Source of the DNA: Escherichia coli
GTDB lineage: Bacteria > Pseudomonadota > Gammaproteobacteria > Enterobacterales > Enterobacteriaceae
Assembly (NCBI RefSeq): GCF_003334385.1
Contig: NZ_QOWN01000115.1
Length of the DNA stretch: 1,343 nucleotides
Strand: one strand, 5' to 3'
Part shown: piece by piece, positions 1 through 1,343 of the stretch
Layout: every line of letters starts with the position of its first letter
Position numbering within the stretch: the first letter of the stretch is position 1
Position numbers: made by a program

Positions 1-1343
1 CGGGTGATCACCGGGATTGCGTCAACGCCTTCTCCGGATCGGGATGGTGACATCCTGGAGCCGGAGGGCGCGGAGTTTGGCAGTGCGATCCCGTTTCTCT
101 GGCAGCATGACCATTCCCGCCCGGTGGGGCAGTGTACGGTGCGCCGGGTCAGCGAAGGGCTGGAAATCACGGCAACACTGGTGAAGCCCGTACCGGATAT
201 GCCGTCGCAACTGGCTGCCCGGCTGGATGAGGTCTGGGCGGCCATTAAGACCGGGCTGGTCAGGGGGCTGTCCGTGGGCTTCCGTCCCCATGAATACACC
301 TTTCTGGACGGAGGCGGACTGCATTTTCTGCGCTGGGAACTGATGGAGGTGTCTGCCGTCACCGTGCCCGCGAATGCGGAATGCACCATCCGGACCATTA
401 AATCTTACGACCGCCCGTTTTCTGCCGCGTCCGGCAACCGGAAACCGGTGGTGAAAATCGCATCTTCTGCCGGCGCTGCGGCACAGTCAACAACCGTTTT
501 TCATAAGGAAAAGACCATAATGAATATTGGCGAACAGATTAAAAGTTTTGAAAACAAGCGTGCAGCGCTGGCAGCCTCCCTTGAGGAGGTCATGACCAAA
601 GCCGCAGAGGAAGGGCGCACGCTGGATGTGGAGGAGGAAGAGCATTACGACAACACCGCAGCGGAAATCCGTCAGGTGGATGCGCACCTGAAGCGCCTGC
701 GTGAACTGGAAGCCGGTAAGGCCGCCACGGCGCAGCCGGTGAAACAGGCCGGTAACGGGAATGTGGCCGCGGTGGCTTCTGCGCCGGTGATCCGTGTGGA
801 GCAGAAACTGGATAAGGGGATTGGCTTCGCCCGCTTTGCCAAATCGCTGGCTGCGGCTAAAGGCGTCCGATCTGAAGCCCTGGAAGTGGCCCGTCGTCAG
901 TATCCGGATGACAGTCGTCTGCATCATGTCCTGAAATCGGCAGTGGGCGCGGGGACCACCACGGATCCGCAGTGGGCAGGCAGCCTGTCTGAATATCAGG
1001 AATACGCACAGGACTTTATTGATTACCTGCGTCCGCAGACCATTATCGGGCGATTTGGTCAGGGCGGGATCCCTGCACTTCGTCAGGTGCCGTTCAATAT
1101 CCGTGTGCACGCCCAGGTGTCCGGCGGTGCTGCCGGCTGGGTGGGTGAGGGTAAGGCAAAACCCCTGACGAAGTTTGATTTTGAATCCATCACCTTCAGT
1201 CATGCGAAGGTGTCGGCCATTGCGGTACTGACGGAAGAATTGATCCGTTTTTCCAGTCCGGCTGCTGATGCACTGGTCCGTAATGCGCTGGCGGAAGCGG
1301 TGGTGGCGCGTCTGGATACAGACTTTGTGGACCCGAAAAAAGC

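Follow-up and report, generated by a model that had tools for sequence, protein, structure and literature searches.

An S78-type prohead protease, probably intact, in frame with the major capsid protein of Stx-converting phages, and a probable internal start at their junction

Does a prohead protease that shares one reading frame with a capsid protein keep its catalytic machinery, and which residues make it up? The question is raised by a 1,343-nt stretch of Escherichia coli DNA (hereafter the window; RefSeq assembly GCF_003334385.1, contig NZ_QOWN01000115.1) that encodes part of a phage head protein. The original prediction, made from the sequence alone, had placed an HK97-type serine protease here, with candidate catalytic residues in nt 91–282 (the His residues of a WQHDH motif and the Ser of GLSVGF), and had taken their presence to mean that the protease module is intact. 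Our analysis makes it highly probable that the window specifies an intact S78-type protease, with S110 as the predicted nucleophile, H55 as the predicted base and E135 as the likely third residue, linked to a capsid protein that probably has an internal start of its own.

Frame 1 of the + strand is free of stops over all 447 codons of the window; the other frames are rich in them. The window begins 19 codons into a gene whose 645-aa product is annotated 'major head protein/prohead protease' in AP012539.1 and covers residues 20–466 of that product; residues are numbered below as in the full-length protein (window residue + 19) unless stated otherwise. Its DNA is 99.9–100% identical to phages 2851, YYZ-2008, Stx2a_WGPS6 and vB_EcoS_phi330, all Shiga toxin (Stx)-converting lambdoid siphophages, and matches 93 phage records and, in one to seven copies each, 1255 of 5426 complete E. 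coli genomes. The 1938-nt open reading frame (ORF) is intact in the 93 phage records (93–100% identity) and in ~1250 complete genomes, and PHROG 617, a full-length fused family, matches the entire fused protein (1e-259). The gene, a composite head gene of Stx-converting lambdoid siphophages (Pankowvirus and relatives) of which the window holds the N-terminal two-thirds, is flanked in AP012539.1 by the large terminase gene and one annotated as portal; RefSeq names it only 'phage major capsid protein'.

Three comparisons place the N-terminal part of the protein in the S78 family. Pfam Peptidase_S78 (PF04586) matches window residues 29–133 (E 3.1e-8) and is also precomputed for fused and split homologs; HK97 gp4 is matched by BLASTP (E 2e-9, 29% identity); and a profile-profile comparison with hhalign, in which the query clade without gp4 was set against the gp4 clade, gave a probability of 96.5% over 144 columns (E 1e-9). 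These matches argue that GLSVGF and WQHDH are not chance motifs. The top structural matches of the AlphaFold model of the protease are T4 gp21 and the herpesvirus assemblins, so that the predicted model has the herpesvirus-protease-like fold foreseen for an HK97-type enzyme; the assemblins share the fold only, at 12–22% identity and without a Pfam assemblin-family match. S110 stands in the model at the start of a long β-strand of a β-barrel-like protease fold. The literal G-x-S-x-G context of this Ser therefore only resembles the nucleophile elbow of α/β-hydrolases: G-L-S-V-G is present, but the fold differs. The Pfam scan of the window detected no ClpP-type domain.

To locate the catalytic columns, we used a HMMER search of 1.84 billion cluster representatives, which returned 31,518 family members; the best 150 of these that are mutually ≤50% identical serve below as the representatives. 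They supplied the diversity, the HK97-clade and gp21-clade homolog sets being too alike internally. In addition, 102 homologs were aligned with HK97 gp4 by MAFFT L-INS-i. S110 is Ser in 103/103 sequences of the MAFFT set, in 150/150 representatives and in all 58 fused proteins compared from divergent lineages, and BLASTP, MAFFT and the profile-profile alignment agree in placing it on gp4 S114. H55 falls in the column of gp4 H65 and is conserved in 100/101 close homologs, 149/150 representatives and 58/58 fused proteins; its N/Q-H pattern recurs at T4 gp21 H85. Thus neither the His nor the Ser column of the family is substituted in the window. By homology, S110 (nt 271–273) would act as the nucleophile and H55 (nt 106–108) as the general base. 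All three codons lie where the original prediction had put them on direct reading, and its choice of Ser holds; of its two histidines only the first aligns as catalytic. The position of the second, H57, is His in 52 of the 150 representatives, Ser in another 52, Ala in 24 and other residues in the remainder, and it is Arg (W-Q-H-D-R) in L004, the closest relative with split genes, where H55, S110 and E135 are all retained. In the profile-profile alignment H57 stands opposite gp4 W68, beside a one-residue gap. The family's catalytic His is accordingly the first, and H57 would be a lineage-specific neighbour outside the conserved machinery.

The third member of the triad is most likely E135, a residue beyond the range proposed originally, which spans the His and the Ser and stops short of it. 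E135 is invariant (150/150 representatives, 58/58 fused proteins), aligns with gp4 E141 in the profile-profile alignment and lies 25 residues past S110. T4 gp21 has a His/Ser/Asp triad that has been aligned with H77, S153 and D178 of SPN3US gp245, where the acid likewise stands 25 residues past the Ser (PMC5694885). In our model the strands bearing the Ser (residues 108–120) and the Glu (126–139) pair as a hairpin. E135 would thus occupy the site that holds Asp in T4-like enzymes and His in herpesvirus enzymes. The protein does not share the Ser-His-His triad of the herpesvirus proteases (assemblin, MEROPS S21), as the invariant residue 25 positions past the Ser is Glu, not His.

Several observations weigh against this assignment. 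It rests on H65 and S114 being the catalytic residues of gp4, which we assume for MEROPS family S78; a full-text literature search found no relevant statement on either residue, the primary HK97 protease papers lying outside its reach. The gp4 sequence encoded in the HK97 genome shows H65 within F-F-N-H-K and S114 within G-M-S-V-G-F, which fits the assumed numbering. The ungapped BLASTP alignment sets gp4 H65 opposite Q54, one residue off, a discrepancy that the gapped and profile alignments resolve. The profile alignment to T4 gp21 is not significant, global or local (E 0.2–0.4); the sole local hhalign segment puts S110 on gp21 S140 but is short and, taken alone, not significant. Conservation does not single out the triad either: a second Ser, S137 in an E-V-S motif (nt 352–354), and both D32 and D36 of a D-R-D-G-D motif (window nt 37–51) are as invariant as the catalytic residues (148–150 of 150 representatives). 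We rejected S137 as nucleophile, since it is S110 that pairs with gp4 S114 and gp21 S140 in the alignments. The TIGR01543 equivalog model (proheadase_HK97) scores 45.6 bits (E 7.8e-12), below its curated cutoff of 59; by this score the protein is homologous to, yet outside, that narrow model. Finally, searches of the PDB with the protease domain, the family profile and HK97 gp4 detected no solved S78 structure.

The protease is maintained by selection. All seven fused Stx-phage copies (93–100% identity) keep the 645-codon ORF and all four of H55, S110, E135 and S137, which are also invariant in the 58 fused proteins. Across the seven copies the protease core is under purifying selection, with a ratio of nonsynonymous to synonymous polymorphism (pN/pS) of 0.22; the helical region that follows it has 0.23 and the capsid body 0.05. 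Phage phi330, whose DNA matches the window at 99.9% identity, forms plaques and is a siphophage with a ~55-nm head; the phi330 paper and its supplement give peptide maps for other phages only, with no coverage of the fusion protein.

The fused state has a split counterpart. In L004 (Logan SRR28346005 contig 312, 3629–5564; 66% identity) a 194-aa protease and a 454-aa capsid protein are encoded by separate genes in the same order as in AP012539.1, and these genes overlap by 14 nt in different frames, so a small indel in the linker could switch between the split and the fused state. Fused-length proteins (≥600 aa) make up 64 of the 150 representatives, which argues that the fusion is not peculiar to Stx phages. 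A literature search for described protease-capsid fusions found nothing relevant; protease-scaffold fusions of T1-like phages appear in a preprint on the cyclic-oligonucleotide-based antiphage signalling system (CBASS).

We weighed three other accounts of the protease module against that of an intact S78 enzyme fused to the capsid protein. H57 might itself be the catalytic base, or might complete a Ser-His-His triad of the herpesvirus kind as its second His: H55 is two residues away, H57 is kept in 7/7 Stx-phage copies and 79/101 close homologs, and the fold is common to herpesvirus proteases, which use such a triad. Its replacement by Ser or Ala in about half of the representatives, by Arg in L004 and by Trp in gp4 makes this very improbable, and the third His of the herpesvirus enzymes, which we take to lie ~25 residues past the Ser, would correspond to the E135 site and not to a neighbour of the first His. 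The module could instead be a degenerate remnant that serves as spacer or scaffold only, the capsid protein being processed by another enzyme or not at all. The score under the TIGR01543 cutoff would fit this, as would the modest Pfam match of the window fragment (34 bits), but the account is scarcely credible given that every family-invariant residue is kept, that the core evolves under the constraint described above, that the annotation of the AP012539.1 head module lists no second prohead protease, and that stand-alone relatives of 45–66% identity carry the same residues. The inference of the original prediction that the module is intact, which concerns predicted activity, is upheld by the same evidence. 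Still less probable is that the fused frame is an artefact or pseudogene, that is, a frameshift or lost stop in a normally split pair that yields no functional fusion protein. The overlapping split genes of a relative at 66% identity, which a small indel would suffice to fuse, make the idea reasonable; against it, the same ORF is intact in the phage records and complete genomes counted above, fused genes occur in many divergent lineages among the representatives, a family of full-length fused proteins exists in PHROG, and a plaque-forming phage carries the fused ORF.

The junction between the two parts holds what appears to be a translation start. The in-frame ATG at M193, preceded by a Shine-Dalgarno (SD)-like AAGGA, corresponds to the start codon of the separate L004 capsid gene, whose product begins MNIAEQIKSF... 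and which has AAGGA upstream as the counterpart of the window's motif. AAGGA and ATG do not vary among the 7/7 Stx-phage copies, unlike the spacer between them; for instance, K-T-I in some copies is K-S-A in others directly before the ATG. In 48 of 59 fused representatives, which are 33–53% identical to the query, a Met lies at most six residues upstream of a conserved E-Q-I anchor, and six of the 11 exceptions have Val at the equivalent position. With Met at 0.8% in the rest of the linker, chance alone would put one there in only ~5% of sequences. At the DNA level, four divergent fused genes carry AGGAGG, GGAGG or GGAG 6–9 nt before the junction ATG or GTG. The window's lowest-GC stretch (25–33% vs 59% overall) falls on the AAGGA/ATG site, and confident helices in the AlphaFold 2 (AF2) model begin at residue 195, just past M193. 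RNA folding around the site was uninformative (z = −1.95, a weak local hairpin). Of the window's 30 in-frame ATG or GTG codons, just one other has an SD-like motif upstream. This second site (window nt 577–594) consists of GAGGAGG, a 3-nt spacer and the ATG at 592 (window M198), 24 codons past the junction ATG; given the very short spacing and the lack of the motif in L004, it is probably fortuitous.

Most simply, the gene would have two nested products: alongside the fusion, an internal ribosome-binding site at M193 would probably yield a protease-free capsid protein, so that only some subunits would carry the enzyme. On sequence grounds we lean, by a modest degree, towards S78 protease-capsid composite genes being nested genes that provide free capsid protein together with a minority of protease-bearing subunits. 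A less likely but serious contender is that all capsid subunits are made as the fusion; the Met and the SD motif at the junction would then be leftovers from a history in which the genes repeatedly split and fused. Salmonella phage Gifsy-2, whose composite capsid gene is described as coding for one protease-scaffold-capsid polypeptide, offers a precedent, and the AAGGA of the window is a modest SD motif at a long spacing of 10 nt in a region where local RNA folding is uninformative. Against this contender, Met or Val and an SD motif persist in fused genes that are only 33–53% identical, within an otherwise hypervariable linker, and the region around them is the lowest-GC stretch of the window; moreover, ribosomes would make use of an exposed SD motif with an ATG no matter how it arose.

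The anatomy of the fusion (Table 1) is drawn from a full-length AF2 model with a predicted local distance difference test score (pLDDT) of 85. Protease and capsid protein are joined by a disordered linker, which shows a pN/pS of ~3 among the Stx-phage copies (window nt 409–519), a value derived from few events and from pairs that are not independent. The two long helices that follow lie inside the match to TIGR01554 (major_cap_HK97; residues 204–584), and we take this region to be akin to the delta domain of HK97. The body of the protein is an HK97-fold major capsid protein both by profile, with TIGR01554 scoring 78.1 bits against a cutoff of 27.5 and PF05065 (Phage_capsid) also matching, and by fold, with Foldseek matches to the capsid proteins of Bxb1 (E 1.5e-15), HK97 (1e-10) and D3 (within 1e-15 to 1e-10). 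Attachment to a capsid subunit would bring the protease along into the procapsid interior. After assembly, much as HK97 gp4 cleaves off the delta domain, the enzyme would presumably free the capsid protein of the helical region, the linker and the protease itself; the model suggests the second disordered stretch, residues 267–279, as a candidate site for this maturation cleavage.

Table 1. Features of the composite protease-capsid gene, in window and full-length coordinates
Feature	Window (nt)	Strand	Full-length residues	Remarks
Prohead serine protease domain (Peptidase S78 type)	1..411	+	20-156	First 19 codons lie upstream of the window
Protease domain in the full-length model		+	4-156	AF2
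Catalytic His by homology	106..108 (CAT)	+	H55	Window H36; HK97 gp4 H65; MAFFT and profile-profile alignment
Second His of L-W-Q-H-D-H	112..114 (CAT)	+	H57	Window H38; not a family-wide catalytic residue
G-L-S-V-G motif with putative catalytic Ser	265..279; Ser 271..273 (TCC)	+	S110	Window S91; HK97 gp4 S114; alignments
Probable third triad residue, Glu	346..348	+	E135	Window E116; HK97 gp4 E141; outside nt 91-282
Disordered, fast-evolving linker	418..516	+	159-191	pLDDT <50; hypervariable among fused representatives
SD-like AAGGA within the ORF	505..509	+		10 nt before the internal ATG
Internal in-frame ATG, probable capsid-protein start	520..522	+	M193	Window M174; start codon of the L004 capsid gene
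Two long helices, delta-domain-like scaffolding-type N-terminal region	526..729	+	195-223 and 229-262	AF2, pLDDT ~95
Second disordered stretch, candidate maturation-cleavage region	742..780	+	267-279	pLDDT <50; between helices and HK97-fold body
HK97-fold major capsid protein body	820..1343	+	~293 to 645	Continues beyond the window; Pfam Phage_capsid, TIGR01554, Foldseek

Comparison with known systems shows which parts of this arrangement are familiar. With HK97 gp4 (MEROPS S78, PF04586) the window protease shares the His, Ser and Glu positions, the D-x-D-G-D, P-V-G and P-A-N motifs, and its role next to a capsid protein of HK97 fold whose N-terminal region is helical. The 225-aa gp4 is a free-standing protein and uses a C-terminal targeting region to get into the prohead, whereas a covalent linker of ~35 disordered residues ties the window protease to the capsid protein. 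T4 gp21 (MEROPS S77, PDB 5JBL) differs in that gp21-type enzymes use Asp as the acid, apparently Glu here, and in that it is not fused to a capsid protein. Herpesvirus assemblin, encoded by nested genes of the UL26/UL26.5 type, shares the fold class and the position of the protease N-terminal to an assembly protein. In that system a shorter in-frame product without the protease is made in ~ten-fold excess (PMC11565193). There, however, the partner is a scaffolding protein and the known short form comes from a separate transcript rather than from an internal ribosome-binding site; in the window gene nested expression is suggested by the sequence. In lambdoid phage head modules, the composite capsid gene of Salmonella phage Gifsy-2 and lambda C/Nu3 combine in one frame a protease with a scaffold or capsid protein, Nu3 being an in-frame internal product of gene C; the proteases of Gifsy-2 and lambda C are of the ClpP/S49 type, not S78. 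The NCBIfam model NF045541, 'prohead protease/major capsid protein fusion protein', has the same overall architecture, so protease-capsid fusions are a catalogued kind, but it describes another lineage: it scores 52 bits against a cutoff of 525 and covers residues 48–287 only.

A second fusion lies next to this gene. The 859-aa 'portal protein' annotated downstream of the window (AP012539.1 8093–10672) is itself an in-frame fusion: residues 1–450 match the separate 450-aa L004 portal (60% identity) and residues 455–856 a separate, repeat-rich 344-aa L004 gene (42% identity), whose start (MNERELS) corresponds to an internal Met455 (MTERELS). Within residues ~540–700 (AP012539.1 ~9700–10200) stand tandem repeats of ~54 aa (PDDVRPMLEQMVKEAVSHIPVPRDGRDYDPEVLQKAVNDAVANIPQPADGKSLT), in more copies than in L004. 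Since the protease-capsid and the portal genes are both fused with downstream start codons retained, in-frame fusion with retention of internal starts may be a habit of the whole lineage. The head genes of AP012539.1 (3659–10672) run terminase, protease-capsid, portal, and the capsid gene precedes the portal gene in L004 as well; in HK97 (50–5185) the order is terminase, portal, protease, capsid.

A few further observations concern the gene and its surroundings. Only 2 of the window's 1343 bases depart from AP012539.1; one of these differences alters window residue 111 (nt 331–333), a variable position in the protease domain that is Arg here and Cys in WGPS6. The fused gene's own start is a GTG with AGGAGG upstream. 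This GTG (AP012539.1 5944) overlaps an out-of-frame mini-ORF (ATGTGA, 5942–5947), outside the window, that sits 5 nt past the strong AGGAGG; FJ188381 annotates the start 33 nt farther upstream. Between the large terminase gene and the fused gene, again outside the window, lies a terminator-like hairpin (GAACCGCTGCGGCGGTTT) and then a T-run (AP012539.1 5905–5930). L004 has a comparable hairpin and T-run at the same place (~3590–3612), and one such match in the stretch is the chance expectation. An antisense ORF of 238 codons (window nt 487–1203, minus strand) opposite the capsid coding region has no support and most likely arises from the GC-richness of the coding strand.

Because the gene, its family and its architecture are already catalogued, the finding of an intact protease is correct but ordinary; only two points go beyond routine annotation, the conservation of the internal start and the fusion seen in the adjacent portal gene. 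A head gene that is very widespread among E. coli prophages, found in roughly one in four complete genomes as well as in Stx1 and Stx2 phages, carries an intact maturation protease, and the residues to mutate are now pinned to H55, S110 and E135, not H57. This may serve to prepare protease-dead Stx-phage procapsids for structural work and offers a better annotation than that of RefSeq. A conserved internal start could explain how one protease per capsid subunit is avoided. If the composite genes are indeed nested, the dose of protease per procapsid would be set by the ratio of two initiation sites, and they would be a bacterial counterpart of herpesvirus UL26/UL26.5 in which the carrier is the capsid protein itself.
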